Notes: generated by a model from the letters alone, not told the origin. A stretch of 64,000 bases of DNA from Candidatus Babeliales bacterium (GCA_963722075.1 CAVRJM010000001.1:149898-213897), one strand, 5' to 3'; numbered from the stretch's first letter, positions 4,663 through 64,000 are shown. Program-made: numbers and translations.

Positions 4663-4986
4663 ATGAAAAACAATAAAATATCTTATTTATTATTATTGTT
4701 AGTTTGTCAAAGCATGCGCGCAATGGAAAATCCAAATCCTGAAAAGGAAGTAAAAAGCGAATATAACCTGCAAGGGCTTGATTTTGCTGATGAAATAATA
4801 TTATCAGCTGCAATACAGAAACTTGAATATTTGAAAAATAATAAGAATAGTATAATCCAAAACTATATAAATAAAGCTGGAATAACCCTGAAAGAGGCAA
4901 CGAATCTATATGACAATAATTTAACAGAAGCTCAGGGCTATTTGGATGAGGTAGTAACGGCGATCAAGAAAGGATTGGGTTACTAA
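4663..4986 (+). CDS. small secreted protein, array paralog P1
   Basis: SD ggagag lies upstream. Signal peptide MKNNKISYLLLLLVCQSMRA|MENP. Core IIQNYINKAGITLKEATNLYDNNL matches the array motif. Confidence 0.7.
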   Translation: MKNNKISYLLLLLVCQSMRAMENPNPEKEVKSEYNLQGLDFADEIILSAAIQKLEYLKNNKNSIIQNYINKAGITLKEATNLYDNNLTEAQGYLDEVVTAIKKGLGY

Positions 4987-4993
4987 CGTAGAA

Positions 4994-5040
4994 GATGCTG
5001 AACAGCATTTAGAAATATAATATCTTGAATGGAGCAAAAA
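4994..5040 (+). promoter_or_regulatory. conserved leader upstream of array paralog (candidate promoter + SD)
   Basis: ..cagcatttagaaatataatatcttgaatggagcaaaaa is near-identical to the leaders at 5664-5723 and 7536-7586. It contains a TATAAT-like box and a GGAG 8-9 nt before ATGGACGG. Confidence 0.35.
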
Positions 5041-5595
5041 ATGGACGGTTATAACAACTATAAAAAATATTTTATTACGATCATAGGTTTATTACTTGCC
5101 ATTTCTTCACTGAATGCGATGCTTTATGATGCGCCTAATAATAATGATAAACGTATCAAAGAAATAGAAGATCATCTGGCCTTCATTAATAATCATATTG
5201 ATGAGTTTATTAAAAGTACTATGAAGCAATTTAATATATCAGAAGAAGACGCTATAGAGTATTATCATCAGCTTGTTGATGGCTACGAAGATGAGATTCA
5301 AAAATTACATGAAAAAGATACGCATCTTGAATATTTCCTGGTATACAATGAGGATCCAGAAAATATTCGTGGCCAATTGAGGGGAATAAATGACGAAATT
5401 ACATATTATGAAAAAGAAAAAAACGATATAATCCAAAATTTTAGTATTGGATATCAGATATCTAAATCAGAGGCACTTGAGCAATATGAAAGGAACTTGT
5501 CCAATTTAAAAGATGAAAGAGACGGGTTATTACTTTTATTGGGACAATTAAAGCCGGAATTAACGGTAGAAGAATACATTAAAAAAATTGAATAA
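5041..5595 (+). CDS. small secreted protein, array paralog P2 (two-module fusion)
   Basis: The start ATGGACGG is conserved with 5724, 7116 and 7587; the ATG at 5029 lies within the conserved SD region. Signal peptide ..IIGLLLAISSLNA|MLYD. The N-half matches P3 and the C-half matches P6. Confidence 0.8.
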   Translation: MDGYNNYKKYFITIIGLLLAISSLNAMLYDAPNNNDKRIKEIEDHLAFINNHIDEFIKSTMKQFNISEEDAIEYYHQLVDGYEDEIQKLHEKDTHLEYFLVYNEDPENIRGQLRGINDEITYYEKEKNDIIQNFSIGYQISKSEALEQYERNLSNLKDERDGLLLLLGQLKPELTVEEYIKKIE

Positions 5596-5663
5596 ACCTT
5601 TTGTATCAAAGAAGAAAAGGGAATAAAATGATGAAAAAGGGTGTGGGAGAACATTAAGGTAGA

Positions 5664-5723
5664 AAATGCTGAAAAATTTCAAGACAGCATTTAGAAATAT
5701 AAGATCTTAAATGGGGTAAAAAA
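5664..5723 (+). promoter_or_regulatory. conserved leader upstream of array paralog
   Basis: aaatttcaagacagcatttagaaatataagatcttaaatggggtaaaaaa is duplicated at 7536-7586. Confidence 0.35.
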
Positions 5724-6011
5724 ATGGACGGTAAAAATAAATTTAAAATGTATCTTTTTATAAGTATGCTTTTGCTTACCCTATCTTCATTGTACGCAAT
5801 GAACTATTACGATCAGCGTATCAAAGAATTAACTGACCATGCGCAATTTATCAAAGACCATGCTGAATATTTTATTAAAAGTCATATGAAACAATTTGAT
5901 GTAGCAGAAGAAGAAGCACGACGCTTTTATAATGAATTGATGGGTAACTTTGAGCGAAAAATTCAAAAGTTATTTCGGAAAAGAGATGAAGTTAAGAATG
6001 TTAAACGATAG
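5724..6011 (+). CDS. small secreted protein, array paralog P3
   Basis: MDGKNKFKMYLFISMLLLTLSSLYA|MNYY; core FIKSHMKQFDVAEEEARRFYNEL. Confidence 0.8.
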   Translation: MDGKNKFKMYLFISMLLLTLSSLYAMNYYDQRIKELTDHAQFIKDHAEYFIKSHMKQFDVAEEEARRFYNELMGNFERKIQKLFRKRDEVKNVKR

Positions 6012-6025
6012 AGAAAGGAGTGATC

Positions 6026-6376
6026 ATGCAAGTACATAAACTATTTTATTTATTAATTTTAATTTTAGGGATTAATTCTGGTATTAAATCGATGGAAAAC
6101 CCATATCCAGAGGGTAGCAGAGAGTTTAGCCGAATGTATGTTCAACAAATACCAGCCAAATATTTAGAAGAAGCATTAAAAAAAGCACAGCAAGACTTTA
6201 TAGTATTTAGAGATGGTAAAGAATCTTTCATTCAACAGGTTATGCATGATTTTGGCTATAATAGGGAAGATGTACAATTCGCTTACGACAAGGAGTTAGA
6301 AGTAAAAGAAGCAATTGTAGATAGTATACAAGAGGCTATCAGAAATATACAAAACATCACCGAAGGTGCAGAATAA
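6026..6376 (+). CDS. small secreted protein, array paralog P4
   Basis: SD aaaggag lies 5 nt before the ATG at 6026; the ORF-track start at 6020 is a GTG inside the SD. MQVHKLFYLLILILGINSGIKS|MENP; core FIQQVMHDFGYNREDVQFAYDKEL. Confidence 0.7.
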   Translation: MQVHKLFYLLILILGINSGIKSMENPYPEGSREFSRMYVQQIPAKYLEEALKKAQQDFIVFRDGKESFIQQVMHDFGYNREDVQFAYDKELEVKEAIVDSIQEAIRNIQNITEGAE

Positions 6377-6417
6377 ACGAGATGAAGAAGGACTGTCTAA
6401 TAAAAAAAGGAGTATTT

Positions 6418-6480
6418 ATGAAGATAAATAAACTATTTTATTTATTTAAGCATGACCTGAAAACCCCATCGGCTTTCTAA
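6418..6480 (+). pseudogene. 5' stump of an array paralog truncated by IS200-like insertion
   Basis: SD aggag precedes ATG, then MKINKLFYLF.., the same N-terminus type as 6026 and 7882 (..KLFYL..). The reading frame then runs into the IS left-end hairpin and stops after 20 codons. Confidence 0.55.
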
Positions 6481-7006
6481 GCCTGGGGATGAAAGGTCAT
6501 CCGTATAAGGCGCGGAGGGAGCGGCTGAGTTGCGAAGTGGAGCGCCGTCGAAAAATGTGGCATACTATGAGGTATGTATTGGACAGGAGCACATACAAAG
6601 CATAGGCACATGTACCACATAGTTTGGACACCTAAATATTGGAAGAGGGTATTGCAGGGCAAAATAGCAAAACGAATAGAAGAGCTATTGAAGGAATGCT
6701 CAGAAGTAAACAATTGGGAAATACATGAATTGAATGTGCAGCCGGATCATGTGCATCTAATGGTTCAACTAAAGCCACACATAAGTGTCAGTAAAGCAGT
6801 ACAATTGTTCAAAGGTGGAAGCAGTAAAGTGATTAGAGAAGAATTTCCTGAATTAGAAGAATATTTATGGGGGGATAGCTTCTGGGGAGATGGGTTTTTT
6901 TCTGAAACTGTTGGCCAAGTAAATGTTGATGTCATTCGCGAATATATAAAAAATCAATAGTCCTTAGAATGCGAAGCCACGGCTTTTAAGCCGTGCGAGC
7001 TTCACT
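6449..7006 (+). mobile_element. IS200/IS605-family element (tnpA only)
   Basis: A Y1 HUH transposase gene is flanked by subterminal imperfect hairpins with a shared GGCTT..AAGCC core. Left hairpin: 6454-6498 (CCCCAtcGGCTTtctAAGCCTGGGG). Right hairpin: 6973-7003 (GAAGCcACGGCTTttAAGCCGTgcgaGCTTC). No tnpB is present. The exact ends are not determinable here. Confidence 0.75.
6574..6960 (+). CDS. tnpA: IS200-like Y1 (HUH) transposase
   Basis: YHIVWTPKYWKRVL, HUH motif PDHVHLMV, and a C-terminal helix with the catalytic-type Tyr (VIREYIKNQ). The 128-aa size is typical of the family. Confidence 0.9.
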   Translation: MYWTGAHTKHRHMYHIVWTPKYWKRVLQGKIAKRIEELLKECSEVNNWEIHELNVQPDHVHLMVQLKPHISVSKAVQLFKGGSSKVIREEFPELEEYLWGDSFWGDGFFSETVGQVNVDVIREYIKNQ

Positions 7007-7115
7007 TAAGCTATATATTTTTGGTAAAATAGATGTATGGTGATGGAGTAATAACAGGGAAAATATAGTTAAAACAACTGAATCACTAGAATTATAATTT
7101 ATAAGTGGAGCAAAA

Positions 7116-7487
7116 ATGGACGGTTTTATTAAATATAAAAAATCTTTTATTGCAATTATAGGTTTGTTACTTATTTCTTCATTAAATGGAATGGAGCCTG
7201 ATAAACCTTCTAAATCTGAGGAACCTAGTGCCTATTATCTAGAAGATCCAGAATATGTTCGTGAGGAATTGAAAGCATTAAATAATGATATTAAATATTA
7301 TGAAGAAAACAAAGAAGAGATAGTTCAAAATATTAGTATTGGATATCAGATATCCATGTCAGAGGCGCTAAATCAATACGAACGGCACTTATCTAATTTA
7401 AAAGAGGAAAGGGAGGAGTTGCTGCGGTTATTAGCTCCAGAAAATCCAGAATTATCATTTGAAGAATATGTTAAAAAAATTGAATAA
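7116..7487 (+). CDS. small secreted protein, array paralog P6
   Basis: MDGFIKYKKSFIAIIGLLLISSLNG|MEPD. The C-terminal region is strongly similar to the C-half of P2 (..IVQNISIGYQISMSEALNQYERHLSNLKEERE..EEYVKKIE). Confidence 0.85.
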   Translation: MDGFIKYKKSFIAIIGLLLISSLNGMEPDKPSKSEEPSAYYLEDPEYVREELKALNNDIKYYEENKEEIVQNISIGYQISMSEALNQYERHLSNLKEEREELLRLLAPENPELSFEEYVKKIE

Positions 7488-7535
7488 CAACAAATAATAA
7501 AATGCGTAATTATATATAGGTGCGGTAGTTCTTTT

Positions 7536-7586
7536 AAATTTCAAGTCAGCATTTTAGAAATATAAGATCTTAAATGGAGTAGAAAA
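7536..7586 (+). promoter_or_regulatory. conserved leader upstream of array paralog (here a pseudogene)
   Basis: aaatttcaagtcagcattttagaaatataagatcttaaatggagtagaaaa; compare 5664-5723. Confidence 0.35.
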
Positions 7587-7871
7587 ATGGACGGTAAAAA
7601 TAAATTTAAAATGTATCTTTTTATAAGCATGTTTTTGCTTACTCTATCTTCATTGCACGCAATGAGCTATTTTGATCAACGCATTTAAGAAATAAAAGAT
7701 CATGCTCAATTTATTAGGGATCATGTAGATGAATTTATTAAAAGCCATGTAAGGCAATTTGGGGTAGATGAAGAAGAAGCACGGCGCTTTTATAATGAAT
7801 TGATGGGTAACTTTGAAAAGAAAATTCAGAAATTGCTTAGAAAAAAAGATGAAGAAAATAAGGGTGCCTAA
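7587..7871 (+). pseudogene. nonsense-mutated copy of paralog P3
   Basis: The region is collinear with 5724-6011 at nucleotide level. Codon 34 is TAA (7686-7688, ..cgcatttaagaa..) where P3 has AAA (..cgtatcaaagaa..). The frame stays open and P3-like afterwards (..FIKSHVRQFGVDEEEARRFYNELMGNFEKKIQKL..) up to the TAA at 7869. Confidence 0.85.
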
Positions 7872-7881
7872 GGGGGAAAAA

Positions 7882-8214
7882 ATGAGCTTTAATAAGTTAT
7901 TTTATTTATTTGTATTAATAATGATAATGGGACGTGATGTTTTTGCTATGGAATATACCGGCTTTTATGTTGAGAGTCCAAGCACTACTCAAATTAAATC
8001 TGTAAACGAACAAATTAAAAGTTTGGAAAAAATGATTCAAGGCATAGAAAAAAATAGGGAAAGATTTGTAAACCGTCGGGTAAGGGAAGGGATGACTAAA
8101 GAAGCAGCAGAAATTGATTTTCAGGATTGGCTTGAAAAAAAGAAAGCGCAATTGTATACGCTAAAAAATCCTGATACAGAAGAAAGCTACGTATCGGAAA
8201 TATGGCAAGAATAA
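7882..8214 (+). CDS. small secreted protein, array paralog P8
   Basis: SD aggggg lies upstream of the ATG at 7882. MSFNKLFYLFVLIMIMGRDVFA|MEYT; core FVNRRVREGMTKEAAEIDFQDWL. The ORF-track start at 7813 lies inside the upstream pseudogene. Confidence 0.7.
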   Translation: MSFNKLFYLFVLIMIMGRDVFAMEYTGFYVESPSTTQIKSVNEQIKSLEKMIQGIEKNRERFVNRRVREGMTKEAAEIDFQDWLEKKKAQLYTLKNPDTEESYVSEIWQE

Positions 8215-8239
8215 ATTAAAATGAATTGGAGGAGAAAAC

Positions 8240-8559
8240 ATGAAGATGTTTAAGCTAATTTTTATAGCACTATTATATTGATAAGTAACACTAATCTTAT
8301 TAATGCAATGAAGCGTCCATATCGAAGTGATACCTGGGAAGCTCCAGCTTCATCATTTGTGTTTCAACAAATATATACAGATTGGGATAGAAAAGTTAAA
8401 AATATGGAAGATAATAGAGATCAAGAAATACAGCAATTGACTATTGATAATCCAACTTGGACTTTAGAAGACGTAGAAAATGAATATAATAGAATTTTAG
8501 AAAATGCAAAAGCAAACCGTGAGAATGCAAAGAATCAATTTTTATCCGAGATTTCTTAA
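8240..8559 (+). pseudogene. array paralog P9 with frameshift in its signal-peptide region
   Basis: SD ggaggag plus ATG at 8240 give MKMFKLIFIALLY* . The rest of the gene (8278-8559, ..NLINA|MKRPY.., core IQQLTIDNPTWTLEDVENEYNRIL) is in another frame. One extra T in the T5 run at 8259-8263 would restore MKMFKLIFYSTIILISNTNLINAMKRPY. Confidence 0.6.
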
Positions 8560-8700
8560 TTTTTTACTATTGTATTGCCAAATGAAATTCCAATAAGATT
8601 AGATGGGTAATAAAATATCTCTTGAGCTATTTATGTAAGTATAAATTCTATTATAATAAGGTAATAATAATTATTATATTGTTTTCAATAGGAAATATTT

Positions 8701-18272: not shown

Positions 18273-18689
18273 TTACTTATTTTCAAATATTTTTGAGATA
18301 AGCTTATCAATATGTACATCATAATCTGTTCTCATCTCATTAATTTTATCTTTCATACGAAGTATATCTTCAAGCATTACATTAGGAAGGGAACCACCTT
18401 CCTTTGCGCTTACGATCATAAAAAGTAATCGTTCATGGGCTGGTAAATATGCATAATAACCCACTCCTCCTTTAATTGCATCAAAGGTTCTAATCTCGGA
18501 AATAAAATTTTCAGCTAAAGTTTTTAAATTAACAGGGCCTGTTTCACGTAATATTTTTATGATTTTTCTTTCAAATTCAGCCGCTTCTATTGCCTCTCTT
18601 TCCCGAGAACTTAATTGTCTTTCCATGGCCATAAGGGTAAATGGGGCAAAGGCTATGGTAAAAAGGGCTATTTTTAACAGATTTTTCAT
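18273..18689 (-). CDS. secreted hypothetical protein
   Basis: SD ggagg lies 6 nt before the ATG at 18689. MKNLLKIALFTIAFAPFTLMA|MERQ. Confidence 0.6.
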   Translation of the reverse strand: MKNLLKIALFTIAFAPFTLMAMERQLSSREREAIEAAEFERKIIKILRETGPVNLKTLAENFISEIRTFDAIKGGVGYYAYLPAHERLLFMIVSAKEGGSLPNVMLEDILRMKDKINEMRTDYDVHIDKLISKIFENK

Positions 18690-18800
18690 TATTTCCTCCA
18701 AAGTATAGGGTTTTTTATTAATTATAACATTTCTATTTGTCAAAAATATAGGGTTTAAAGGGGATTTTAGAGCCTATCCCCAGCTTCACTTTGTGATATA

Positions 18801-20444: not shown

Positions 20445-21749
20445 ATGGTAACGCAAGAATTAGAGAAAATGAGTCTTGCCGATTTAAATCAATATGCACG
20501 AAAATTGGGTGTAGTAGGCGCTACCTTAATGTCAAAAGTGGTTTTAATTCAAAAAATTAAAGAACTACAAGAAAATCCTGATAAGGAATTGGAAGTAGAA
20601 GGGGTATTAGAAAAATTACCTGATGGATTTGGGTTTTTACGATCTGCTAAATTTGATTATGTATCCGGCCCTGATGATATTTATGTTTCGCCATCTCAAA
20701 TACGTCGTTTTGGTTTAAGAACGGGGGATACGGTATCAGGCGTTATCCGTAAACCTAAAGACGGGGAAAAATATTTTGCCTTATTAAAGATTGATAAAGT
20801 AAATTTTATGGATCCATCAACGCTTGGTGATCGATTATTCTTTGATCGCTTAACACCGTTGCATCCCGATAAAAAATTTAATTTAGAATCTAATCCCACC
20901 TATATTTCTACTCGTTTAATGGATATTTTCTCGCCTATAGGTAAAGGACAGCGCGGATTAATTGTTGCGCCGCCAAAAGCAGGTAAAACGGTTCTCTTAA
21001 AAGAAATCGCTCAAACTATTTTAGCCAATCATCCAGAAGTATATCTCATTGTTCTTTTAGTTGATGAACGCCCTGAGGAAGTTTCTGATATGCGCCGTTC
21101 TATAAAAGGCATGAACGCTGAAGTAATTAGTTCTACCTTTGATGAGGCAGCAGAACGTCACGTGCAAGTTGCAGAAATTGTGTTAGAGAAAGCAAAACGC
21201 TTTGTTGAAGTAGGCAAAGATGTGGTTATCGTGCTTGATGCTATTACCCGTTTAGCGCGTGCTTATAATACTATTGCACCAGCATCTGGTAAAATTTTAA
21301 CCGGTGGTATTGATGCTAATGCTTTGCAGCGGCCAAAACGGTTTTTTGGTGCAGCACGTAATACTGAAGAGGGCGGATCTCTTACCATTATTGCAACCGC
21401 ATTAATTGAGACTGGTTCTCGTATGGACGAAGTTATTTACGAGGAATTCAAGGGAACTGGTAATATGGAAATGCACCTGAGTCGAAAATTAGCAAACCGT
21501 CGCTTATTTCCTGCCTTTGATCTACTCATTTCTGGTACCCGTAAGGAAGATTTACTACTTTCTCCCGATGAACTTAATAAATCATGGATTCTACGTAAGT
21601 TCTTGGCTACAATGCCTACGGTAGAAGGCATGGAATTCTTAATTGATAAAATGAAAAAGCATAAAACGAACGCTGAATTTTTTGAATCAATTCATAAGAA
21701 GAATGGAAGCAGCTCCAATGGTTCTTCAAATCCTGGCTCTGCAGCATAA
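20445..21749 (+). CDS. rho: transcription termination factor Rho
   Basis: N-terminal Rho domain ([15 protein letters not shown]), RNA-binding [10 protein letters not shown], Walker [22 protein letters not shown], and the [23 protein letters not shown] block. Confidence 0.96.
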
Positions 21750-22092
21750 ATTAATTTTTTTGGTAGCAGTAATAGGATTCTTGGCTACTGCAATGGAACC
21801 ACCGCATAAGAAAATAAAAGAAACTAAATCCTTGCCAGCTTTATCAGAGCGATTGCCTACTGAAGCATCGTTACGCATTAGAGCGATTTATTGCTTAGCA
21901 CAAAAATATCATGAAGAGAGTCCATATGGTGAAGGTAGTGAAGATAATACATTATCAGCTATAGCAACAAAGGTGCCCGATAATTGCTGGTGTTTACTGG
22001 AAGCGCTTTATAAAAAGAAACTACAGCCAACGCGTGCCTTAAGATTCATATGTAAGCATATTATGCCGATGAAGACATGGTGTACGATTTAA
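21682..22092 (+). CDS. hypothetical N-terminal fragment; possibly the 5' part of a split ankyrin-repeat gene
   Basis: The ORF overlaps the rho 3' end; a likely start is the TTG at ~21763 giving (M)[10 protein letters not shown]|MEPPHKK. It ends 16 nt after the next ORF starts, in a different frame. The downstream frame is open from 22056 (..[19 protein letters not shown]). Confidence 0.4.
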
Positions 22093-27436: not shown

Positions 27437-27865
27437 ATGAAAAAAATTGCACTTCTAGGTATGCTCTTACTAGTATCTTCAGCTATACAAGCCGAAAATA
27501 CTACCGACTCAGCTATCCCTACACAAGAAATAACCAGTGATACTATTGATATGAATGGTTTTGTAGACCCTCTTATCGAGGGGTTATTAGCAGAAGAAGC
27601 AGAACTATTTCTATTTACGGTAATGCGAATAAATCGCTTGGTGTTGCAGAAACAAATTAATGATAATGCGCAGCAACACAATCAGCAATTAGAAGAATTA
27701 GCAATTCAAAATAAAGCGTTACAAGAAAGAGTGGCAGAATTAGAAGAAAAGGACGAGCAGAAAACAATAGTGATTGTTCAGATGAAATCGCAATTAAATT
27801 ACTTGGGTACCAAGCTTGCGCAGTTTGAATATAAAAAAAATAGTGAAGGCATTATTGGTGGTTAA
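27437..27865 (+). CDS. secreted coiled-coil protein
   Basis: Canonical signal peptide MKKIALLGMLLLVSSAIQA|EN, then heptad-like QQLEELAIQNKALQERVAELEEK. Confidence 0.6.
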   Translation: MKKIALLGMLLLVSSAIQAENTTDSAIPTQEITSDTIDMNGFVDPLIEGLLAEEAELFLFTVMRINRLVLQKQINDNAQQHNQQLEELAIQNKALQERVAELEEKDEQKTIVIVQMKSQLNYLGTKLAQFEYKKNSEGIIGG

Positions 27866-33293: not shown

Positions 33294-34214
33294 ATGAAAA
33301 AATTATGGCCAATTCTCTACATTTTTTCTCTCTGCTTTTATATAAATGTAACAAGTGCAGTTGTTATGGATGTATTAAAGGATAAAGAGTTATTTGATAT
33401 TAATAGCGTAGTGGTAACGGTTGATGGTCCCGAACGCAAGCGCTATATTTGTAAATCAGAATTAATGCGTGTTGGTATTGATGGTAGAAAACCATCAGTG
33501 GAAGATTTAATTACTGAAGAACTTGCCTTGCAAGATGCCATTAAACATAAGATACCGGTTGAGGATTTTGCTGATCGTTACATCGCTTCAATAAAAAAAG
33601 CGCATAACGTTAATGATCGTGAAGTTGATCGTATCTTTGAAGCCGCTGGACTTACTCCTGATGAAGGGCGTGCTAAGTTGCAAGCAATGGGTGCGCATAA
33701 TACCATGATTGATATGAAGGTAAAAGCACGGATTTTTGTTCCCCAACAAGAAATCGAAGAGTATGCTAAAAATAATCCCCTCTATAAAGAACCAAAATAT
33801 CAATTAGAAGTAGCGATTGTTCCATTTTTTTCCTTTGATCGAAAAAAACAAGAAGAACAATTCCAGTTTCTGATTGAGCAAGCCAAAGAAGGGCAATTAG
33901 ATGTGATATGGGGTGCTCCCTTTTGGTTGAAAAAAAGCGATATTGCTGATGATAAACAATTTATACTCACCATGCAGGTGGGCGAGGTTTCGTTACCGCA
34001 ACCTGGCAATGCTGGTTTTGAATTTTGCCGTTTAAAAAATAAAAAACCTGAAAAGCTTATTCCTTTAGAAAAAAGATTTAGAACGATTCTCGATGAATTG
34101 CGTGAACCAAAATTTAAGGGAATGTTTGATAGCTATATCAATGATCTTTTAACCAATGCAGCCATTATTTACCCAGAAGCTGATTGTTCTGGCGGAGACA
34201 CCGGCCGGGCTTGA
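33294..34214 (+). CDS. secreted SurA-N-like chaperone-type protein (tentative)
   Basis: Signal peptide MKKLWPILYIFSLCFYINVTSA. The mature part resembles SurA N-/C-terminal chaperone helices (..EELALQDAIKHKIPVEDFADRYIASIKK..). No clear PPIase motif. Confidence 0.45.
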   Translation: MKKLWPILYIFSLCFYINVTSAVVMDVLKDKELFDINSVVVTVDGPERKRYICKSELMRVGIDGRKPSVEDLITEELALQDAIKHKIPVEDFADRYIASIKKAHNVNDREVDRIFEAAGLTPDEGRAKLQAMGAHNTMIDMKVKARIFVPQQEIEEYAKNNPLYKEPKYQLEVAIVPFFSFDRKKQEEQFQFLIEQAKEGQLDVIWGAPFWLKKSDIADDKQFILTMQVGEVSLPQPGNAGFEFCRLKNKKPEKLIPLEKRFRTILDELREPKFKGMFDSYINDLLTNAAIIYPEADCSGGDTGRA

Positions 34215-35542
34215 GGACCATATAATACATAATGCTGCGCATGTGGGAAACCTTGTGCTGCCAATTTATTCATAAGAGCAATGCCAATAGTTTGTTTGGC
34301 TGGTTTATGTTCGATATATAAACGTGCAATAAGATAAGAAGCCGTTTGATGATGATTTCTATGTGCTTGCTTGAGTAGCTTATATCCGACTTTTTGGTTG
34401 AATGCTCCTGGTTGATTAAGATGATGGATCGCTAATTCATATTGCGCATCAGAATCTTTTTGGCCAGCTGCTATCTCTAAGTAAAAAAGCCCTAAGGAAA
34501 TATCTTGATCAAGATACGTGCCCTTTAATAGATGGGTTCCGTATTCACGGTAAGCAGGCATATGCTGTTGTGCCACTGCTTCTTGAAAAAATTTTTTTGC
34601 TTTTTCTTTATTTTGGGGAAGGTATCTATTGGTACAATAATAACGTCCCATAAGGCATTGAGCAGGAGCAAATCCTATGCATGCTGCATTATGTATTAAT
34701 TTGATACCTTTTTTTATATCAAATGGGACTCCGTTACCCTGCAAATATAAAACACCCAGACTATTTTGAGCATATAAACAGCCTAATTGGGTGGCCTTTT
34801 CATAATAGAACGTTGCGTGATTGTAATTTTGCTTTACGAAGTTATTTTCAGTTTCATATAATAAGCCCAAATAAAAAGCTGCGGTAGCAAAATCTGATTT
34901 CGCTGCTTGTTTCATAAGCTCGAGTGCTTGTTTTATGTTTTTTATTTGACCAAAGCCATATAAGTAACAGAGCCCTAATGAAAATGTGGCAGGAATTGAA
35001 CCCATCATTTGAGCTTTATTATAACAGCTTTGGGCTTTGAATTCATCATTTTTATATTCATACAGTTTACCAAGCAAATAAAGTGCCCGATGATCCGATT
35101 TTGCTTTTTCTAAATAAGCAATACCTAGTTGTTCATTAATAGATTCTATATCCGTTATTTTTTTAATTAAATAATAAATACCCCAAAATAAATAATCTGA
35201 AGGGCTAACGGGTGATCTTTGCTCAAAAAATGAAAAATCTATTTGATCCCACCGCATATTTTTAAAGGGATCGCTTGGGGTTTGGTAGGCATCAGCATCA
35301 TCAAGAAATTTGTTATAGGTTGCGTAGTAAATAAGCGTTTGGAGGGCCTGTGGATTGCTGTTAGCATGTGCAATTAATAGTGGAATGACGGGAAAAATAT
35401 CTTTCAAATTAATGGAAGGGGTATGGTAATGGGAAGCAATAAGATGTGTTGGATCCTCATGAGTTAGTTTCCCAATGAGTGGCGGTTTCATAGAATATAA
35501 TGCAGTATTTATAAATACTATAAATATTAATAATAGAAACAT
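34169..35542 (-). CDS. Sel1-like (SLR/TPR) repeat protein, secreted
   Basis: Multiple Sel1 units (..A.F.LGL.Y..G.G...N...A...F.KAA..G...A.. pattern, e.g. ATFSLGLCYLYGFGQIKNIKQALELMKQAA, AQNSLGVLYLQGNGVPFDIKKGIKLIHNAA). N-terminus MFLLLIFIVFINTALYS|MKPP. Confidence 0.85.
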   Translation of the reverse strand: MFLLLIFIVFINTALYSMKPPLIGKLTHEDPTHLIASHYHTPSINLKDIFPVIPLLIAHANSNPQALQTLIYYATYNKFLDDADAYQTPSDPFKNMRWDQIDFSFFEQRSPVSPSDYLFWGIYYLIKKITDIESINEQLGIAYLEKAKSDHRALYLLGKLYEYKNDEFKAQSCYNKAQMMGSIPATFSLGLCYLYGFGQIKNIKQALELMKQAAKSDFATAAFYLGLLYETENNFVKQNYNHATFYYEKATQLGCLYAQNSLGVLYLQGNGVPFDIKKGIKLIHNAACIGFAPAQCLMGRYYCTNRYLPQNKEKAKKFFQEAVAQQHMPAYREYGTHLLKGTYLDQDISLGLFYLEIAAGQKDSDAQYELAIHHLNQPGAFNQKVGYKLLKQAHRNHHQTASYLIARLYIEHKPAKQTIGIALMNKLAAQGFPHAQHYVLYGPQARPVSPPEQSASG

Positions 35543-35692: not shown

Positions 35693-36661
35693 ATGAAACA
35701 TGGATTGTTGTTATTACTTTTTTTACCCGGCATTGTTAATGGAATGTTAGAATTAGAAAACGGGCTTAAGCAGCTAAAATCAAAATTATCAACGCTTGAT
35801 AGGCAAATGCATGCATTTTATACCGCGCCGATAGCTACAAAACCTGCAAAACCACCGATGCCTATTATCTCAGAACCAATAATTGCTAAAAAACCGGAAC
35901 CCCAAAGTATCAGTGCTCCTCTAAAACGGCTTACTTCTATACAATATAATGATTTAAAAAAGGTGATAGAAGAAGAATCTAAAGAAGATGGTTGTTGGAA
36001 TTATAATTTAAATACCTATCCAGTTATCCAGGAACTTGAAAAAGAATTGGGGCTTTCTCAATTTATTTTTTCATGCCTTGGTAAATATATTATGATTTCC
36101 AGCCGTACCATGATGCGTGGGAACCGTGAATTATTCTCTATTGATGAGGTGAGGACTGAATTAAATAGTTACCGTTTTGATAAGGTAACCAAAGAGTATA
36201 AAATTCATCTTATGCCTAAATCGGGTGAAGATTTACTCCTTATCATTGAGCGTTTGCTCAAAGAAATTCAATCGAATGATCAACTGCAAAATTCGCTTGT
36301 TGAAATTAAATTTAAAACGCCTGATTATCAAGAATTAAAGGAGCGATTAAAAAAACTGAAAAGCGGTAGTAAAAAAGTTAAGCCTATTATTGTTATATAT
36401 CCAGGTAGCAGTAAAAAAGATGCGCAAACGGTGTTAAATAGTGTGTATAAATTATTTGGCACTATGGAAGGGCTTGATATGGCACCGCGATTTAATGAAA
36501 AAATTACCTCGTTAATATATTATGCACAAAGCCATGGCGATATAAAAAGAGGTAATGAGTTTGATGAATTTTTTACTGAAGATAAGAAATTCTTCAAACC
36601 GGATGTAGAAGGCAAAGGATACGATATTGATTATCGCTTACAAAATCCCGCTGCACATTAA
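35693..36661 (+). CDS. secreted protein with OspF/SpvC-like phosphothreonine-lyase motif pattern (tentative)
   Basis: Signal peptide MKHGLLLLLFLPGIVNG|ML and a Pro-rich linker. It then has, in the same order as the SpvC catalytic residues: YKIHLMP (K104-x-H106), EIKFKTPD (K134-x-K136), KERLK (R148) and IIVIYPG (Y158). Confidence 0.5.
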   Translation: MKHGLLLLLFLPGIVNGMLELENGLKQLKSKLSTLDRQMHAFYTAPIATKPAKPPMPIISEPIIAKKPEPQSISAPLKRLTSIQYNDLKKVIEEESKEDGCWNYNLNTYPVIQELEKELGLSQFIFSCLGKYIMISSRTMMRGNRELFSIDEVRTELNSYRFDKVTKEYKIHLMPKSGEDLLLIIERLLKEIQSNDQLQNSLVEIKFKTPDYQELKERLKKLKSGSKKVKPIIVIYPGSSKKDAQTVLNSVYKLFGTMEGLDMAPRFNEKITSLIYYAQSHGDIKRGNEFDEFFTEDKKFFKPDVEGKGYDIDYRLQNPAAH

Positions 36662-51205: not shown

Positions 51206-51655
51206 TCGAGATCCTTCTTTCTTTGAAAAATTTTTTTAATAAGGTTGCTGATTCCTGAAGGCAGATTCCTGAAATAATTTCTAAAGTATTTCTTCTATAT
51301 ACCTGAAGAGGGCCTTGGTTGTCAAGTTTGTAACCAAATAAAGGAGAAGAAGCACCAAAAACTACCCCACGTAATCTGCTTAGTAATATTAAATTCATAC
51401 ACATGGCGCATGGTTCCAAGGTAACATAGAGCCAGCATCCCTCAAGGCGCCAATCTTTTTGGAAGGCGCATGCTTTAGTAATTGCTCGTATTTCTGCATG
51501 GGCTACTTGCTGTTTTTTTTCTCTACCTGATTATAGCCGCGACCAATAATAGTGCCGGTAGAATTCACTACTAGTGCTCCAATAGGAACCTCATTTTGCT
51601 TATAGGCGCGCCGTGCTTGGGCAAGGGCCTGTTTCATATATAATTCATGATTCAT
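51180..51655 (-). pseudogene. tadA: tRNA-specific adenosine deaminase TadA, interrupted by a frameshift in an A8 tract
   Basis: The N-part (51503-51655) reads MNHELYMKQALAQARRAYKQNEVPIGALVV..GYNQVEKK. After the A8 run (T8 on + at 51513-51520), the frame with QQVAHAEIRAI..LYVTLEPCAMC.. (HAE and PCxxC zinc motifs) continues to 51180. One extra A (A9) would make a single ~158-aa ORF. Confidence 0.85.
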
Positions 51656-53438
51656 CGGTACCCTGCAGAAATCTAATAAGATCTTCAGAGGCATGAGGGG
51701 TAATATAATCTGATGCAGTTCTTCCTTGGTGATCTTTCATCGTTTTATCAGCGCCATTATTAACGAGTAATATTACTGCATTAGTATTATTACGACCTAC
51801 TACTATCATAAGCGGGGTAATGCCTTGATTATCTGGTGAATTAATAAGTTTTGTAAGTTGGTGAGGGTAGGTCGTGTGTAGTAGCAATTTTAAGCAATCA
51901 AAATTGTGTTTCGCGGCAAAATGGATAGCATTGCGTCCCTTATTATCAGTTAAAAATATATCGGCTTTAAAGTCGTGAATTAATGTTGATGCCACTGGAA
52001 ATAGATTATGCTTAATGGCCTGATGTAAGGGTGTACGCCCTTTATTGTTTTTCTTATCAAGAAATGAACGATGTTGATCAACAAGCTTTTCTAGTAATTG
52101 AGGGCAATAAATTGCAAAGTGTATAATTGCATCACCTCTATTAGTGACATGAGTGGTATCGGAATTGGGTAATAATTTTAAAGATAACTCGCTATCATTA
52201 TCACGAAGTGCGTTCATGAGCGCGGTTTCACCAGTATCATCACATTGGTTGATGATATTTGGATAGCGGCATAATGTATCAATTGTGGTAGGATCTTTAT
52301 GGCAGGTTGCGTACCATAAAACGGACCTTTTTTGAGAATCAAGGATGGCTGGATTAGCGCGTTTAGCAAGTAATCTATTAAAAGTTTCTGGAGAGATACC
52401 AGATTTAACGCATAATTGTAATAAGGTACATTTTCGATTCTCACAAAAAAAATATATATCATACGCATCATTTATATGGGCCCACCAACTATCATCAACT
52501 AAATGTATGTTGTTAGTTATAACAGCTAATAATAAAAATAACTTATTTTTTTGAGCAATGGTCAATTTCGGTGTGTCTGTTAGTAACTTATCATATGCTC
52601 CGTCTTCAACTTGTTCAACCAGTTCTTCATATGCTCCAATTCTAACGTGCCCCTGCGGAGCATGATAGTTTGTTGGTAATTCGGTGACTCTATCTTTAAA
52701 TTGGATTTCCGCCTGCGCAACCATATAGTCCGTTGCTAATTCTGGAGCATGATTAAGTATTAGTTCTAATAAATGAGTATTACGATTAGTAGCATTTACT
52801 TTTTGCCATAAATATTTCTTGGTAATAATGTTAATTAATAAGCTTGCAAGTTTTTTACAATCATATATAAGCGCATTATGTAACGGGGTCATACCGTTCT
52901 TATCTGGTGTTACTATATCTAAATATCCTGCATTGCGCGGTAATTTCTTGCGATCACAAAGTAGTAATAGTTCCGTTGCTACCTTAGGATCTCCATTACA
53001 AATAAGCGCATTAAGGGGCGTTTGCCCAGCTGTATTAGTAGCTTCTAAATTACAGCGATAATTTTTTAATCTATTATGTAATGATGCTATGGTTCTTGAT
53101 CGGTGAATAAAAAAATCCGGCTTACATTCGCCTGATTCTAAAAATGTAGCAAAGTCAACATGAGCTTTTAAGAGGCTCTCATAATCTTCATTTTGAAGTA
53201 ATGGTTCAATTTCTTTATGGGTTAACTTTTTATTTTCCAGTGCATGTAATATGCCATCTATGGCTAAGGTAATTAAGGAAGGTAGCTGGTAGGTATCGTG
53301 TAAGGGTTCTACCGGTTCTAATATAGTAGGGTCAATATCCATTATAGTAGGATTAACATTCATTGTAGTATGTTCCATATCCATGGCGGCTATAATGCTC
53401 GTGCAAAAAAGTGAGAATAAAAGAATATTTTTTTTCAT
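51645..53438 (-). CDS. ankyrin-repeat protein, secreted
   Basis: MKKNILLFSLFCTSIIAA|MDME, then many ANK units (GQTPLNALICNG, GMTPLHNALIYD, GETALMNALRDN, GRTPLHQAIKHN, GRNAIHFAAKHN, GITPLMIVVGRNN..LLVNNGADK). Confidence 0.88.
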   Translation of the reverse strand: MKKNILLFSLFCTSIIAAMDMEHTTMNVNPTIMDIDPTILEPVEPLHDTYQLPSLITLAIDGILHALENKKLTHKEIEPLLQNEDYESLLKAHVDFATFLESGECKPDFFIHRSRTIASLHNRLKNYRCNLEATNTAGQTPLNALICNGDPKVATELLLLCDRKKLPRNAGYLDIVTPDKNGMTPLHNALIYDCKKLASLLINIITKKYLWQKVNATNRNTHLLELILNHAPELATDYMVAQAEIQFKDRVTELPTNYHAPQGHVRIGAYEELVEQVEDGAYDKLLTDTPKLTIAQKNKLFLLLAVITNNIHLVDDSWWAHINDAYDIYFFCENRKCTLLQLCVKSGISPETFNRLLAKRANPAILDSQKRSVLWYATCHKDPTTIDTLCRYPNIINQCDDTGETALMNALRDNDSELSLKLLPNSDTTHVTNRGDAIIHFAIYCPQLLEKLVDQHRSFLDKKNNKGRTPLHQAIKHNLFPVASTLIHDFKADIFLTDNKGRNAIHFAAKHNFDCLKLLLHTTYPHQLTKLINSPDNQGITPLMIVVGRNNTNAVILLVNNGADKTMKDHQGRTASDYITPHASEDLIRFLQGTDES

Positions 53439-56343: not shown

Positions 56344-57084
56344 ATGAAATATTTATTTATTAAAAAAATAATAAGCACCGTTATGATATCCATTTTTAGT
56401 GGGCTTTTATATAGTATGGATAGGCCAGATGATCTAGAGGGTGGATCTATTCAAGTAGATTTGGCCAATATTTCTTTATTTAGTCATATTTATAATGCAG
56501 ATGAGGTCAGTGTACTTGATCGTGAAAGTTTAAAGGAAGATCTAGAGCAAAAAAAGCTGAAAACCGTTTCCATTCTTCTTGAAATGTGTTACAGATGTCG
56601 CGTTGATCTTTGTGACGGTGATTTATTCCAGAACAGCTTTTTTTTCCCACAATGGGCATGGGAAGAAGAATATCCGGAAGGCTTAATAAAAATACATGCC
56701 ATTTGGCAGTTGCTACGAAGTGATTATGAAATACAACGCGATATCGGAAAAATTACATTTTTAAATCTTATCGAAAGTCTTAATTCTACTTCACAAGAAA
56801 TAATATTGAAACAATTAAATTCTTACAAAATGTCCAAAGAAAGACTTTTTATTAATGTGTGTCTAACGCTAATGCCTTTTTCTGTAATAGGATTAATTGG
56901 CTATTACGAAAATGAAAACGATTTGTGGAAAAACAAATCTTTTAAATTAGTGATAGGGCTTGGGGGTGTTGCTGCTCTTTTATATGGCTCGATAAAAGTT
57001 GGCTGCTCAACTCAAGATTATAGGTGGTGGCAATCAGCCAAGCGGTTTCAGAAGGCAGTAGCTATCTGTGAACAATCTTCTTAG
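56344..57084 (+). CDS. secreted/membrane protein, paralog of 59025..59714
   Basis: N-terminus ..ISIFSGLLYS|MDRP; a shared block FLNLIESLN..IILKQLNSY; two C-terminal TM helices; YRWWQS; Cys-containing tail AVAICEQS. Confidence 0.65.
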   Translation: MKYLFIKKIISTVMISIFSGLLYSMDRPDDLEGGSIQVDLANISLFSHIYNADEVSVLDRESLKEDLEQKKLKTVSILLEMCYRCRVDLCDGDLFQNSFFFPQWAWEEEYPEGLIKIHAIWQLLRSDYEIQRDIGKITFLNLIESLNSTSQEIILKQLNSYKMSKERLFINVCLTLMPFSVIGLIGYYENENDLWKNKSFKLVIGLGGVAALLYGSIKVGCSTQDYRWWQSAKRFQKAVAICEQSS

Positions 57085-58498: not shown

Positions 58499-59005
58499 AT
58501 GGAATTATATAAAAAATTGATATTGCTTATGGGTATTATAGTGGTAATGCCTTGTGTATTTGCAATGGAGCATGAAGATGACCCAGAATTAGCGGAAGCA
58601 ATGAAGCGGTCATTACTTGGGCAAAATCAATACCTGCCAAGTGCGCCCCCAATGCATGGAGTTCAAAATAGTGAAATAGCAGATCGAAATTTAGCAATAG
58701 AACTTACCTACTCATGGAATAATTCTGAAGGCAATGGAAAAGAAAGAACGGGTAATGATGATTCTCAAAATTATGCAGGTTCTTCACGTTCACGTGGTAC
58801 AAATAGACCGGTTGATTCCACTAATTTTAATTTTGCTGCCCGTCATGCTGCACTTACCGAGTTTAAAAACAAACCATGTAATAATTGTTTTTATAGGCAA
58901 AATCTACCTTGGTACAAAAAATATTTTCTTCCACTTATTAGTAGTGCAGCACTTTTTGGTGCGGGTAGTTTATTTACCTACGCATTGATGAAGTGGACTC
59001 GATAA
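58499..59005 (+). CDS. secreted low-complexity protein with C-terminal TM anchor
   Basis: MELYKKLILLMGIIVVMPCVFA|MEHE; a polar Ser/Asn/Gly-rich middle region; C-terminal TM YFLPLISSAALFGAGSLFTYALMKW. Confidence 0.6.
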   Translation: MELYKKLILLMGIIVVMPCVFAMEHEDDPELAEAMKRSLLGQNQYLPSAPPMHGVQNSEIADRNLAIELTYSWNNSEGNGKERTGNDDSQNYAGSSRSRGTNRPVDSTNFNFAARHAALTEFKNKPCNNCFYRQNLPWYKKYFLPLISSAALFGAGSLFTYALMKWTR

Positions 59006-59024
59006 TGATTCTCCTTCAGTAATA

Positions 59025-59714
59025 ATGGTTTTTATGAAGAAGTATATTTCTTATCTACTTTTTGCTTTTTCTATTTTAAGTTTATTTATGAGTACTGCTT
59101 CATTACTGCATGCTATGGATAGTGATTCAGAATGGTGGCAAGAAAATGAAAAGCAACAAGCAATTATCACGCTGGTAAGTACCATAGCAAAAATGGGATA
59201 TATTTATCAAAAATTAGATATTCAAAATATCGAATTTCCCGTTTACATACCGGAGGTTACCGGAAGATATGATTTATGGTGTAATAATTATGATTCTCCT
59301 AATCCTTTTGAGAATTCTCATTGGGATAAATACTGTCCTGGTGGGTATGATCAATGTTCTGCTGCAGTAGATCAATTAAAGAAACGTTTACCAGAAAATA
59401 CATTACTTTCTCTTATTGCAAAACTAACGCCATTAAATAAAAAAATACTCTTGAAGGATTTGCAACAATATAATCCAAACCCTTCTTTATATTGGCGTAT
59501 TGCAGGTACAAGTGCATCGGCAGTGTTGTCGGTAGGTAGTGCGGCTCTTACGTATACATTTCCTGATTTAAAATATGCTGGTATTGCTGGCATGGTGCTG
59601 GGTGGAATTGGTACTTTAGTAGGAGCATGTTTTGTAAAAACTAGTTTTAGTGAGCGGCAATGGTGGCGGCGATGTCCTAATTGCCATGAAGCAATTAGAC
59701 TTTGCAAAGAATAG
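59025..59714 (+). CDS. secreted/membrane protein, paralog of 56344..57084
   Basis: ..FSILSLFMSTASLLHA|MDSD; LLSLIAKLT..ILLKDLQQY; two TM helices; RQWWRR; Cys tail CPNCHEAIRLCKE. Confidence 0.65.
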   Translation: MVFMKKYISYLLFAFSILSLFMSTASLLHAMDSDSEWWQENEKQQAIITLVSTIAKMGYIYQKLDIQNIEFPVYIPEVTGRYDLWCNNYDSPNPFENSHWDKYCPGGYDQCSAAVDQLKKRLPENTLLSLIAKLTPLNKKILLKDLQQYNPNPSLYWRIAGTSASAVLSVGSAALTYTFPDLKYAGIAGMVLGGIGTLVGACFVKTSFSERQWWRRCPNCHEAIRLCKE

Positions 59715-59948: not shown

Positions 59949-59991
59949 ACAATGGATAAAATTAAATGACCTTAAAGCAAAACCCGTTGAA

Positions 59992-61522: not shown

Positions 61523-61535
61523 GATAGGAATAATA

Positions 61536-61814: not shown

Positions 61815-61819
61815 GGAGA

Positions 61820-62431: not shown

Positions 62432-62444
62432 AAGGAACAAAGTA

Positions 62445-62816
62445 ATGAACGTTAAATTTTTTTCTTTAGTAGTGGTAACTCTTTTATTGAGCACTGTTTG
62501 TTTGAAAGCAAATATATTTAATGATCTAGATCGTTCTACCAATACGGTAATAAGTCACCCGTATTATAATCATGTTCTTAATACTTGTGTTGGTATTTGG
62601 ACTTTTTCATTATTAAAGGAACTTTTGGTTCCTAATTTACATCATAACGATACTGAAACTACGGTTGCTACCTTATGTTCACTTGGTGGTGCTTGTGGTG
62701 CTTCATATCTTGCACAGAAGTATCCTGGCTATGCCACAGTAACGTGTGTAGTCTATGGCCTTTACTGTTTTTTACATAAACATCATCGCACCATAAAAAG
62801 ACATATGAGGTTATAA
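62445..62816 (+). CDS. hypothetical membrane protein
   Basis: A signal/TM at the N-terminus plus 2-3 further hydrophobic helices and a basic tail. Confidence 0.5.
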   Translation: MNVKFFSLVVVTLLLSTVCLKANIFNDLDRSTNTVISHPYYNHVLNTCVGIWTFSLLKELLVPNLHHNDTETTVATLCSLGGACGASYLAQKYPGYATVTCVVYGLYCFLHKHHRTIKRHMRL

Positions 62817-62825
62817 AAGATAAAA

Positions 62826-62858
62826 GGGAACGATAATTCGTTCCCTCATTATTTTCTT
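62826..62858. terminator. hairpin between convergent genes (bidirectional terminator candidate)
   Basis: GGGAACGataattCGTTCCC (62826-62845) is followed by a T-rich tract (tcattattttctttg) and preceded by an A-rich tract. Confidence 0.5.
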
Positions 62859-62877
62859 TGTTACAAAAAGTAATATT

Positions 62878-63129
62878 TTATTGAGCTGTTGGTGCAACGT
62901 CGCTGGTAGCGGAAGTTTGAATATACATCATATTACCACTATTATCATATACCGGTGTTTGTGGCATAAATACTTGTGGCATCTTAAATCCAGTTACTAT
63001 TTGATACAACAAACTTTGAATGAACTGTTTAGCATTTGGTGTTTCAGTTGAAATTTGTGTTTTAACTACAGGACCAAATATTTGTATAAAGACTTCGTTA
63101 TCTTTTATTACAATCTGCCCTATAATCAT
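62878..63129 (-). CDS. hypothetical; probably the C-terminal part of one gene with 63098..63466
   Basis: There is no SD before the ATG at 63129, and that ATG uses the last A of an A6 run (63129-63134). Confidence 0.4.
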   Translation of the reverse strand: MIIGQIVIKDNEVFIQIFGPVVKTQISTETPNAKQFIQSLLYQIVTGFKMPQVFMPQTPVYDNSGNMMYIQTSATSDVAPTAQ

Positions 63130-63466
63130 TTTTTACGCTATTATAAATACCGTTTAAAGCACCTAAAGGAGGAAGCCCTCCCATTCCATATTTTTTAGTG
63201 CCTCCTCGAGCATATGAATTTAATGCATGTACTAAGCCACGAAGTTCATCAACAGTTACCGTACTCAGTGGATTTGTTAGATTCATAAATGGTATTTTGA
63301 CTTTTTCAAACGTCGTATTAGCTGTTGTTGTGATATCTTGTATTGCGCTATTTATTTCTTTTTGTATTTTAGCTTTATTATAAAGCCCCTGGCCGCCAAT
63401 GCGCGTTGCAGCAAAAGATGCCATTGGCACTAAAGCCAATAAAACTATATATATAACTTTCTTCAT
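63098..63466 (-). CDS. secreted hypothetical protein (N-terminal part if the gene is frameshifted)
   Basis: Canonical signal peptide MKKVIYIVLLALVPMASFA|A. Changing A6 to A5 would join it to 62878..63129 (..YNSVK-MIIGQIVIKDNE..), giving ~190 aa. Confidence 0.6.
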   Translation of the reverse strand: MKKVIYIVLLALVPMASFAATRIGGQGLYNKAKIQKEINSAIQDITTTANTTFEKVKIPFMNLTNPLSTVTVDELRGLVHALNSYARGGTKKYGMGGLPPLGALNGIYNSVKNDYRADCNKR

Positions 63467-63677
63467 GAAAACTCCTTTTAAGTGATTTATAGGTAAAACT
63501 GTGCCAAAAATGGCTCCTATTCTTAAGAATAACTCATTATAGAGGGGAATAGCAATATTTTCAAATAGAAAATAAAATCAGGCGATTGCTTGTAAATAAG
63601 GGCGGGGGCCCTTTTAAAAATAATTATATTTGTTATTATTATAATAGTAATATTTAATTAGTAACGAGAGGAATTGT

Positions 63678-64000
63678 ATGAAAATAAAGTTGTTTACACT
63701 GTTTTTAATGGTTAGCCTTGGAATGGGTACAGTATCTCTTCGGGCAATGGATAGCAAAAAGGTAATTGATTGGGATCGTAGGTATGATGCATTCGAGCAA
63801 GGAGCAGCTACAGCAGAAACTGGGAGGCCAGATCGGAGATGGCAAAGGGTAAGAAATCAGCAGGAAGATGATCTCATTGGTAATCGAACTTCAACAGGAT
63901 CACAGTATCCAAATACATCCTATTATAATCCTAGCAATCATTCATCTGGTAAATCTACTTTTTTCTTAATAAAAGATTACCTAAAATGGGGTTTGAGTGG
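63678..64000 (+). CDS. secreted hypothetical protein, 3' end beyond the window
   Basis: SD gagagg lies upstream. MKIKLFTLFLMVSLGMGTVSLRA|MDSK. I translated the frame by hand and it stays open to the end of the window; it is not in the ORF track because no stop is reached. Confidence 0.6.
   Translation, partial: MKIKLFTLFLMVSLGMGTVSLRAMDSKKVIDWDRRYDAFEQGAATAETGRPDRRWQRVRNQQEDDLIGNRTSTGSQYPNTSYYNPSNHSSGKSTFFLIKDYLKWGLS

Follow-up and report, generated by a model that had tools for sequence, protein, structure and literature searches.

A methionine bias directly after the predicted signal-peptide cleavage site in non-conserved secreted proteins of Dependentiae

The window analysed here, a stretch of 64,000 nucleotides from the genome of a Candidatus Babeliales bacterium (GCA_963722075.1 CAVRJM010000001.1:149898-213897), encodes ankyrin, Sel1 and orphan proteins in which a hydrophobic signal peptide (SP) ends in a small residue and is followed directly by a methionine (position +1) and usually by glutamate or aspartate (Table 1). 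We call these SP-Met genes and proteins. An initial annotation made from the sequence alone had listed 21 such N-termini, and translation returned all of them as written. Two of the 21 genes, the copies at 7587 and 8240, are pseudogenes; the other nineteen are intact. Seventeen of the listed positions read as given, on the plus strand, and 35542 and 53438 are minus-strand starts; position 18273 proved to be the stop end of a minus-strand open reading frame (ORF, 18273-18743), with the signal peptide starting at 18689 and the Met codon at 18626. Every ATG in the window was scanned for the same architecture, and no further genuine case was found. The BamA encoded at 1831-4584 has hundreds of relatives named Candidatus Babeliales, Babeliaceae or Dependentiae, the closest being 85% identical, which places the window in a Dependentiae (TM6) genome. 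Rfam and tRNA scans of the window returned two tRNAs only.

For comparison, about 1 Mb of sequence was sampled from 80 metagenome bamA loci of Dependentiae and from one related genome locus (L001), the single, distant one to which a scan of genome contigs with BamA led, together with five further neighbourhoods from closer relatives. Genes were called simply as longest ORFs. About 48% of the called genes in the Dependentiae loci pass a high-confidence signal-peptide filter, as against 23% in E. coli under an identical filter. The 48% fits the unusually large share of signal-peptide proteins reported for Dependentiae, for example the 44% of coding sequences with putative signal peptides in Chromulinavorax destructans, for which Sec is the only export route discussed (PMC6561590).

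By their layout, the SP-Met signals are genuine Sec-type signal peptides: a Met-Lys/Asn start leads into a hydrophobic core, and the c-region ends in L/I/V-x-A/S/G. The n-region holds Lys or Arg in most of the genes, the exceptions at 12041 and 35542 having very short n-regions, and in 20 of 20 the best eight-residue window of the core has a Kyte-Doolittle value of at least 2.0 and no charged residue. The median length before the Met is 20 residues (interquartile range 18-22). Translation starts at the upstream ATG: of 20 window genes, at least 13 have GGAG, GAGG or AGGA 5-10 nucleotides ahead of the ATG of the signal peptide, and the Shine-Dalgarno rate at SP-Met starts, 56-60% in the window and related loci, equals that of other signal-peptide genes. 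As the initial annotation had noted for its own list, the internal ATGs lack such a sequence (0/16 in the window and 0/45 in related loci, hence 0/61 in total), even though random internal ATGs show one in 5% of cases. The 20 nucleotides 5' of the internal ATG have a coding-like GC content of 41%, compared with 31% before real starts.

The residues flanking the Met are those of a signal peptidase I site whose +1 residue is Met. In the 63 pooled cases, position -1 is occupied by A (37), S (14), G (7) or P (5), and position -3 most often by L (23), I (11), A (8), V (4) or S (4). A non-circular test was applied to any Met at most 15 residues after a core: A, G or S precedes it in 72% (14% for Met elsewhere), L, I, V or A is at -3 in 68%, and D or E follows in 56% (6% elsewhere). 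After true initiator Met residues of the same genome, D or E follows in only 10%. Proteobacterial signal peptidase I (A-x-A) substrates have the same n/h/c layout, with a small residue at -1, an aliphatic or small one at -3, a length of about 20 residues and acidic residues early in the mature part; the differences are that +1 in E. coli is typically Ala, small or polar, with Met in 0/21, and that Leu or Ile at -3 is more frequent here. No lipobox is involved, Cys being at or beside the site in 0/21, and the window lipoprotein at 31876 (LLPNC/E; a slash marks the predicted cut) is a separate case. A type IV prepilin-type leader (G/F or M-T-L-I-E) is likewise not matched, given that the hydrophobic segment precedes the Met and a polar, acidic sequence follows it. 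On these flanks, signal peptidase I probably cuts exactly before the Met.

Chance is a poor explanation of the Met, as the initial annotation had argued. Within 20 residues around the core end of high-confidence signal peptides in the window, Met was the X of [A/G/S]-X-[D/E] in 12 of 16 tripeptides (binomial p ~1e-18); in the mature regions of SP-Met proteins, Met makes up 1.7% of residues. In the Dependentiae loci outside the window, Met was again the commonest X (27/208, p 3.5e-16), while 100 kb of E. coli gave 0/16. Cut sites were further assigned by a home-made predictor with an added hydropathy contrast that ignores the +1 residue, and which recovered known E. coli sites such as those of DegP, BtuF and Ivy. 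It placed Met at +1 in 13 of 22 signal-peptide proteins of the window and in none of 21 from E. coli. In the other loci, Met was found at +1 in 42 of 175 non-conserved signal-peptide proteins (24%) and in 2 of 125 conserved ones (1.6%; Fisher p 4e-9). Clean SP-Met cases occur in more than 25 of the 80 metagenome loci, for example MKKLLLSLVLVASFAPVFA/MDSG (ending FAPVFA/MDSG) in L043, ISMGPLCA/MEAG in L062, IASMAGA/MDDK in L037, SCSSLLS/MEHA in L084 and ISTFLYA/MEEK in L091. The +1 Met bias is phylum-wide in Dependentiae and very strong in this genome. A cleavage matrix trained by expectation maximization on conserved Dependentiae signal-peptide proteins settled on the hydrophobic core and not on the cut site, and was discarded.

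Table 1. SP-Met genes of the window and the transposase lying among them. A slash marks the predicted cut; positions count from the first letter of the window.
Feature	Coordinates	Strand	Length (amino acids)	Junction	Met codon	Remarks
Array gene 1	4663..4986	+	107	MKNNKISYLLLLLVCQSMRA/MENP	4723	GGAG 5' of ATG 4663
Array gene 2	5041..5595	+	184	AISSLNA/MLYD	5119	alternative start 5029
Array gene 3	5724..6011	+	95	TLSSLYA/MNYY	5799	
Array gene 4	6026..6376	+	116	GINSGIKS/MENP	6092	AGGAG 5' of start
IS200-type Y1 transposase	6574..6960	+				within array, not an SP-Met gene; Pfam Y1_Tnp, E 1e-41
Array gene 5	7116..7487	+	123	LISSLNG/MEPD	7191	
Pseudogene copy of array gene 3	7587..7688	+		TLSSLHA/MSYFDQRI-stop	7662	
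Array gene 6	7882..8214	+	110	MGRDVFA/MEYT	7948	
Frameshifted array copy	8240..8559	+		LINA/MKRP	8308	SP head MKMFKLIFIALLY
Array gene 8	8701..9039	+	112	NGIASNA/MEHS	8761	
Array gene 9	9065..9397	+	110	YQNLIRS/MEAP	9131	
Array gene 10	9428..9706	+	92	AMVVRP/MEHK	9488	atypical Pro at -1
Orphan	12041..12367	+	108	MNILLFIILFLFSFNNWA/MDFG	12095	no Pfam match
Orphan	18273..18689	-	138	MKNLLKIALFTIAFAPFTLMA/MERQ	18626	GGAGG 5' of ATG 18689
Small protein overlapping rho 3' end	21682..22092	+		VIGFLATA/MEPP	21793	
Sel1-repeat protein	34169..35542	-	457	MFLLLIFIVFINTALYS/MKPP	35491	Pfam Sel1, E 4e-27
Orphan	35693..36661	+	322	MKHGLLLLLFLPGIVNG/MLEL	35744	
Ankyrin-repeat protein	51645..53438	-	597	MKKNILLFSLFCTSIIAA/MDME	53384	Pfam Ank_2, E 9e-34
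Orphan	56344..57084	+	246	IFSGLLYS/MDRP	56416	weak paralog of 59025 gene
Orphan	58499..59005	+	168	VVMPCVFA/MEHE	58565	
Orphan	59025..59714	+	229	STASLLHA/MDSD	59115	
Orphan running off window	63678..64000	+		GTVSLRA/MDSK	63747	

The carriers are poorly conserved. For 92% of SP-Met proteins, as compared with 43% of the remaining signal-peptide proteins, there is no homolog elsewhere among the sampled Dependentiae loci, and 3% versus 42% are widely conserved (Mann-Whitney p 1.7e-12), a contrast that is unchanged when the window is left out. In the window, the Met is found in ankyrin, Sel1 and Pfam-less proteins and is missing from BamA, a PPIase lipoprotein and a DivIC-like protein. The Met-free junctions cited in the initial annotation (BamA VYA/DS, 27437 IQA/EN, 40900 SKA/WV, 63466 SFA/AT and the lipoprotein at 31876) all read as stated. 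Its division into lineage-specific and housekeeping proteins has exceptions, however: the ankyrin protein at 57205-58467 and the Pfam-less secreted proteins at 27437, 62445 and 63098 likewise lack the Met.

The bias is also not the property of one duplicated family, a condition under which the initial annotation would have taken its observation as refuted. The array genes form a single family at the profile level, and BLAST of the mature parts assigned the ten non-array genes to nine unrelated families, with only the 56344 and 59025 genes weakly related. When nine intact array paralogs (15-31% identical to the first) were aligned, just two columns showed no variation, the start Met and the +1 Met, and this invariance in strongly diverged paralogs indicates that the +1 Met is maintained and not merely inherited. 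At the DNA level (blastn), similarity of upstream and signal-peptide sequences is limited to members of the array family, with none from one unrelated gene to another, and recent shuffling of signal-peptide cassettes is therefore not the source. A profile search with the array family in 1.84 billion representatives returned mostly the window's own proteins and four to five distant members. AlphaFold models one array protein as a helical bundle (pLDDT 80), which has no PDB fold match below E 0.1 and so gives no clue to function. Homolog searches gave no match at E <= 1e-20 for the 51645..53438 ankyrin protein except itself, and for the 56344/59025 pair they gave matches from its own genome or strain only, with no outside homolog; conservation at the ortholog level was therefore checkable only for the array family and the 21682 gene, whose ortholog in the closest relative (L082) retains VVPCFS/MEQS. 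A close variant of the 59025 gene product, P0139, retains HA/MDSD.

One of these distant members belongs to a homologous eight-gene array that adjoins nth in another genome (L089), and the signal peptides of that array closely resemble one another. Its +1 residues are L, V, G, D, M, V, M and V (codons TTG, GTG, GGC, GAT, ATG, GTA, ATG and GTA). Met thus occupies +1 in 2 of 8 array genes there, as against 11 of 11 array genes and nine other families here, which implies that the rule is set by the genome and not by the family; many other Dependentiae impose it too, though less strongly than this genome. A genome-level rule that spans unrelated families points to a trans-acting reader or to selection on the host side, and not to a cis-acting quirk.

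The genomic setting of the carriers is variable. The interval between bamA and nth (4585-9734) is a variable island, with 11 small secreted-protein genes and an IS200 Y1 transposase here, nothing in L082 and L093, and other, unrelated small genes in L084, L091 and L092; the transposase marks the array as a plastic island. The gene at 5041 is a paralog of those at 7116 and 5724. The copy at 7587 has 93% DNA identity to the 5724 gene and an in-frame stop after 33 codons, and in the copy at 8240 the signal-peptide head is out of frame with ORF 8278-8559, which holds INA/MKRP. A further block of Pfam-less genes at 12041-15910 (108, 753, 114, 181 and 141 amino acids), between a glycosyltransferase and a DUF2062 gene, is absent from L082 and looks like a second inserted island.

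Of the functions that the initial annotation had proposed for the Met, a secretion or processing signal is best supported, by the fit to a cleavage site, the constraint on the residue, its recurrence in unrelated families and across the phylum, and its restriction to non-conserved proteins; the cleavage and the function themselves are predictions. We consider it very probable that these proteins have a real signal peptide and a selected Met at +1. As the first mature residue decides the fate of a protein after export, we infer that selection acts at the protein level. In the model that we favour, signal peptidase I would cut directly before the conserved Met, and the exported protein would start with Met-Glu or Met-Asp. 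The rule would cover fast-evolving, lineage-specific secreted proteins (ankyrin, Sel1, leucine-rich repeat and orphan proteins) that are putative host-directed effectors, and conserved periplasmic and outer-membrane proteins would be exempt.

The selective reason may lie in the host. Under the N-end rule of eukaryotes, an N-terminal Met is stabilising, and typical bacterial +1 residues such as D, E, Q, K and L are destabilising. An acidic second residue blocks removal of the Met by methionine aminopeptidase, and Met-Asp/Glu is the class of N-terminus handled by NatB. A stable Met-acidic N-terminus would avoid exposing a destabilising residue and could be selected for stability inside the host, and Dependentiae ankyrin proteins, which mostly carry signal peptides, are thought to reach the host cytoplasm (PMC4378268, PMC6561590). 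Taken as a whole, the model of Sec-exported, host-directed proteins whose mature N-terminus is selected as Met and then Asp or Glu is tentative, its chances being somewhat below even. Stability in the host as the selective reason is rather doubtful. It is similarly speculative, and on balance unlikely, that Met-Glu/Asp is a dedicated mark of the Dependentiae host-directed secretome, whether read after Sec by a trans-acting component or mimicking a eukaryotic NatB-type N-terminus.

Several observations weigh against this model. Stability alone leaves the preference for Met over Ala, Ser and Gly, which are also stabilising, unexplained, and non-Met stabilising residues are only mildly enriched (49% of non-conserved versus 36% of conserved secreted proteins). 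The route by which Sec-exported proteins would cross the outer membrane to the host cytosol is a gap in the model. The ankyrin protein at 57205-58467 has SNA/RLK and no Met, and in the L089 genome the +1 Met is dispensable for the array family. Further, the cut site was placed by the -3/-1 rule together with a home-made predictor, which is wrong for about one third of known E. coli sites, and proteins were scored as conserved or non-conserved within BamA neighbourhoods only, not over whole genomes.

The nearest described phenomenon is the Q-rule of Bacteroidetes, in which the +1 Gln of signal peptidase I substrates is cyclised to pyroglutamate and raises the stability of extracytoplasmic proteins (PMC5837995, PMC10653852). 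Both cases show the phylum-specific fixation of one residue directly after a canonical Sec/signal peptidase I signal peptide. However, the +1 Met bias is not a member of the Q-rule: the residue is Met and not Gln, no modifying enzyme is known or implied, and while the Q-rule covers most signal peptidase I substrates, the Met is confined to non-conserved proteins (24-28% in the phylum and about 60% in the window, versus 1.6% of conserved ones). No candidate N-terminus-modifying enzyme of the glutaminyl cyclase type was noticed in the window, 64 kb of the genome, where no test was dedicated to it. As a separate observation, Gln was the second commonest X of [AGS]X[DE] in the Dependentiae loci L001-L084 (24/208), which hints that a weaker Q-type preference also exists in Dependentiae.

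Other likenesses concern single proteins or small sets. Liberibacter and phytoplasmas, wall-less or reduced intracellular bacteria without dedicated injectors, use plain Sec signal peptides for small orphan proteins that act on the host, as is supposed here; we know of no conserved +1 residue described for these effectors. Anthrax edema factor in its native mature form starts with MNEHYTES; this Met counts as a stabilising residue, and how potent the toxin is in host cells accords with the N-end rule (PMC3755998). Both it and lethal factor are Sec-secreted and act in the host cytosol, as we suppose the SP-Met proteins to do, and edema factor shares the initial Met (PMC3755998, PMC2518864). They are, however, individual toxins from a Gram-positive organism that depend on protective antigen for delivery, and do not make up a proteome-wide rule; in addition, the Met of edema factor is partly removed in preparations, and entry into the host cytosol and N-degron control are only supposed for Dependentiae.

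The main rival to host-side stability is a post-Sec sorting tag, in which the Met-acidic N-terminus, or an uncleaved A-M-E junction, would be recognised by some factor particular to the lineage, perhaps a dedicated peptidase, a translocon of the outer membrane or the loading of vesicles, that separates host-released from envelope-retained proteins. In logic this would be comparable to the lipoprotein export signal of Bacteroidetes and to sortase and exosortase tags. It predicts the observed split between non-conserved and conserved envelope proteins, and the varying strength of the rule in different genomes for the same family suggests a trans-acting reader; with 44% of coding sequences bearing signal peptides and Sec the only route discussed in C. 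destructans (PMC6561590), an extra discrimination step would be needed. Nevertheless, no candidate reader is encoded in the window, one or two residues are unusually short for a sorting signal, and the Met cannot be the sole export ticket when only about a quarter of the phylum's non-conserved secreted proteins carry it and the ankyrin protein at 57205 does not. The study of the Q-rule also concluded that +1 Gln is not a generic sorting signal (PMC5837995). We regard a sorting tag as improbable.

Less probable again is a historical footprint, the Met being the old start of a cytosolic or newborn gene that later gained an upstream hydrophobic extension encoded by AT-rich DNA or was captured behind a signal-peptide module, and persisting because the carrier genes are young. 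The great majority of carriers are indeed orphans or genes of low conservation, and several signal peptides abound in F, I, L, Y and N like translated AT-rich DNA (for example those of the 12041 and 35542 genes). The array lies in a plastic island with its IS200 transposase, and a protein cut just in front of the former start Met would have its ancestral N-terminus back. Yet a relic Shine-Dalgarno sequence is absent from all 61 internal ATGs, a rate below that of random ones, an acidic residue follows the Met far more often than it follows true starts, a small residue precedes the Met in 72%, and a Met kept invariant in paralogs so diverged is a maintained one. The signal-peptide DNA of unrelated genes shares nothing, and cassette capture as the initial annotation had put it is disfavoured in its recent form.

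That the in-frame ATG serves as a second translation start, yielding a signal-less cytosolic isoform beside the exported one, is very unlikely, and this suggestion of the initial annotation is disfavoured. The codon is indeed the canonical start codon and is kept without exception in this genome, TTG and GTG occupy the position in two of the six L089 paralogs that lack the Met, and about 40% of genes in these genomes are without a recognisable Shine-Dalgarno sequence, so that initiation without one exists. However, the remaining four of the eight L089 paralogs have GTA, GTA, GGC and GAT, which argues against a start-codon function. The missing Shine-Dalgarno sequences, the coding-like GC content upstream and a second-residue usage unlike that of true starts speak against it as well; the -3/-1 neighbours fit a peptidase site and would be needless for a start codon, and there is no evident rationale for cytosolic copies of ankyrin or Sel1 effectors. 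An annotation artefact, with the internal Met as the true start and the signal peptide as a translated 5' leader, is barely credible and was rejected on the position of the Shine-Dalgarno sequences, which precede the upstream and not the internal ATG: AT-rich leaders can translate into hydrophobic sequence and public callers chose shorter starts for P0138 and P0139, but the upstream frames are open with an ATG, K/N-rich n-regions and Leu-rich cores, and the signal-peptide sequences are conserved at the protein level among paralogs.

Dependentiae are a largely uncultured phylum of widespread obligate parasites of protists, and we know of no effector signature for them. No description of a +1 Met bias was found in the open-access full-text literature, including the Babela and Chromulinavorax genome papers, in which no dedicated effector delivery route is described either; a search of the Yeoh 2016 TM6 paper gave no occurrence of the term "signal peptide". 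The +1 Met bias is possibly a marker of host-directed effectors. If Met-Glu/Asp is indeed a dedicated mark of the host-directed secretome, a two-residue signature would identify effectors across the whole phylum, and a simple rule that separates host-directed from housekeeping envelope proteins would allow their prediction from metagenomes. It would be the second case, after the Q-rule, of a phylum fixing the first mature residue of its exported proteins, and would make it possible to ask directly whether cleavage sites of bacterial signal peptides are shaped by the N-degron system of eukaryotes.

Some further features of these genes and their surroundings deserve mention. The public gene calls P0138 and P0139, corresponding to the 56344-57084 and 59025-59714 genes, start inside the signal peptide (MISIFSG... 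and MSTASLL...), and automated annotation thereby hides the signal peptide in some such proteins; annotators should be aware that gene callers sometimes start such genes inside or after it. A Pro lies two to three residues after the Met in the genes at 4663, 6026, 7116, 9065, 21682, 35542, 56344 and 8240 (MENP, MENP, MEPD, MEAP, MEPP, MKPP, MDRP and MKRP), which points to a somewhat extended motif, M-[ED]-x-P, in this genome; across the pooled loci Pro is less enriched, with 5-6 of 63 at each position. An ankyrin ORF at 22077-22820 (plus strand) overlaps the SP-Met ORF 21682-22092 by 16 nucleotides in another frame, and 21682-22820 may represent either one effector gene with a frameshift or two genes that overlap; in L082, the ortholog of the 21682 part has only 86 amino acids. 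Finally, a 671-amino-acid protein at 23133-25148 (minus strand) combines MutS domains III and V with an N-terminus (MKKKHLLIILITWLLLSTEA...) that resembles a membrane anchor or a signal peptide, which is unexpected in a protein of the MutS type.

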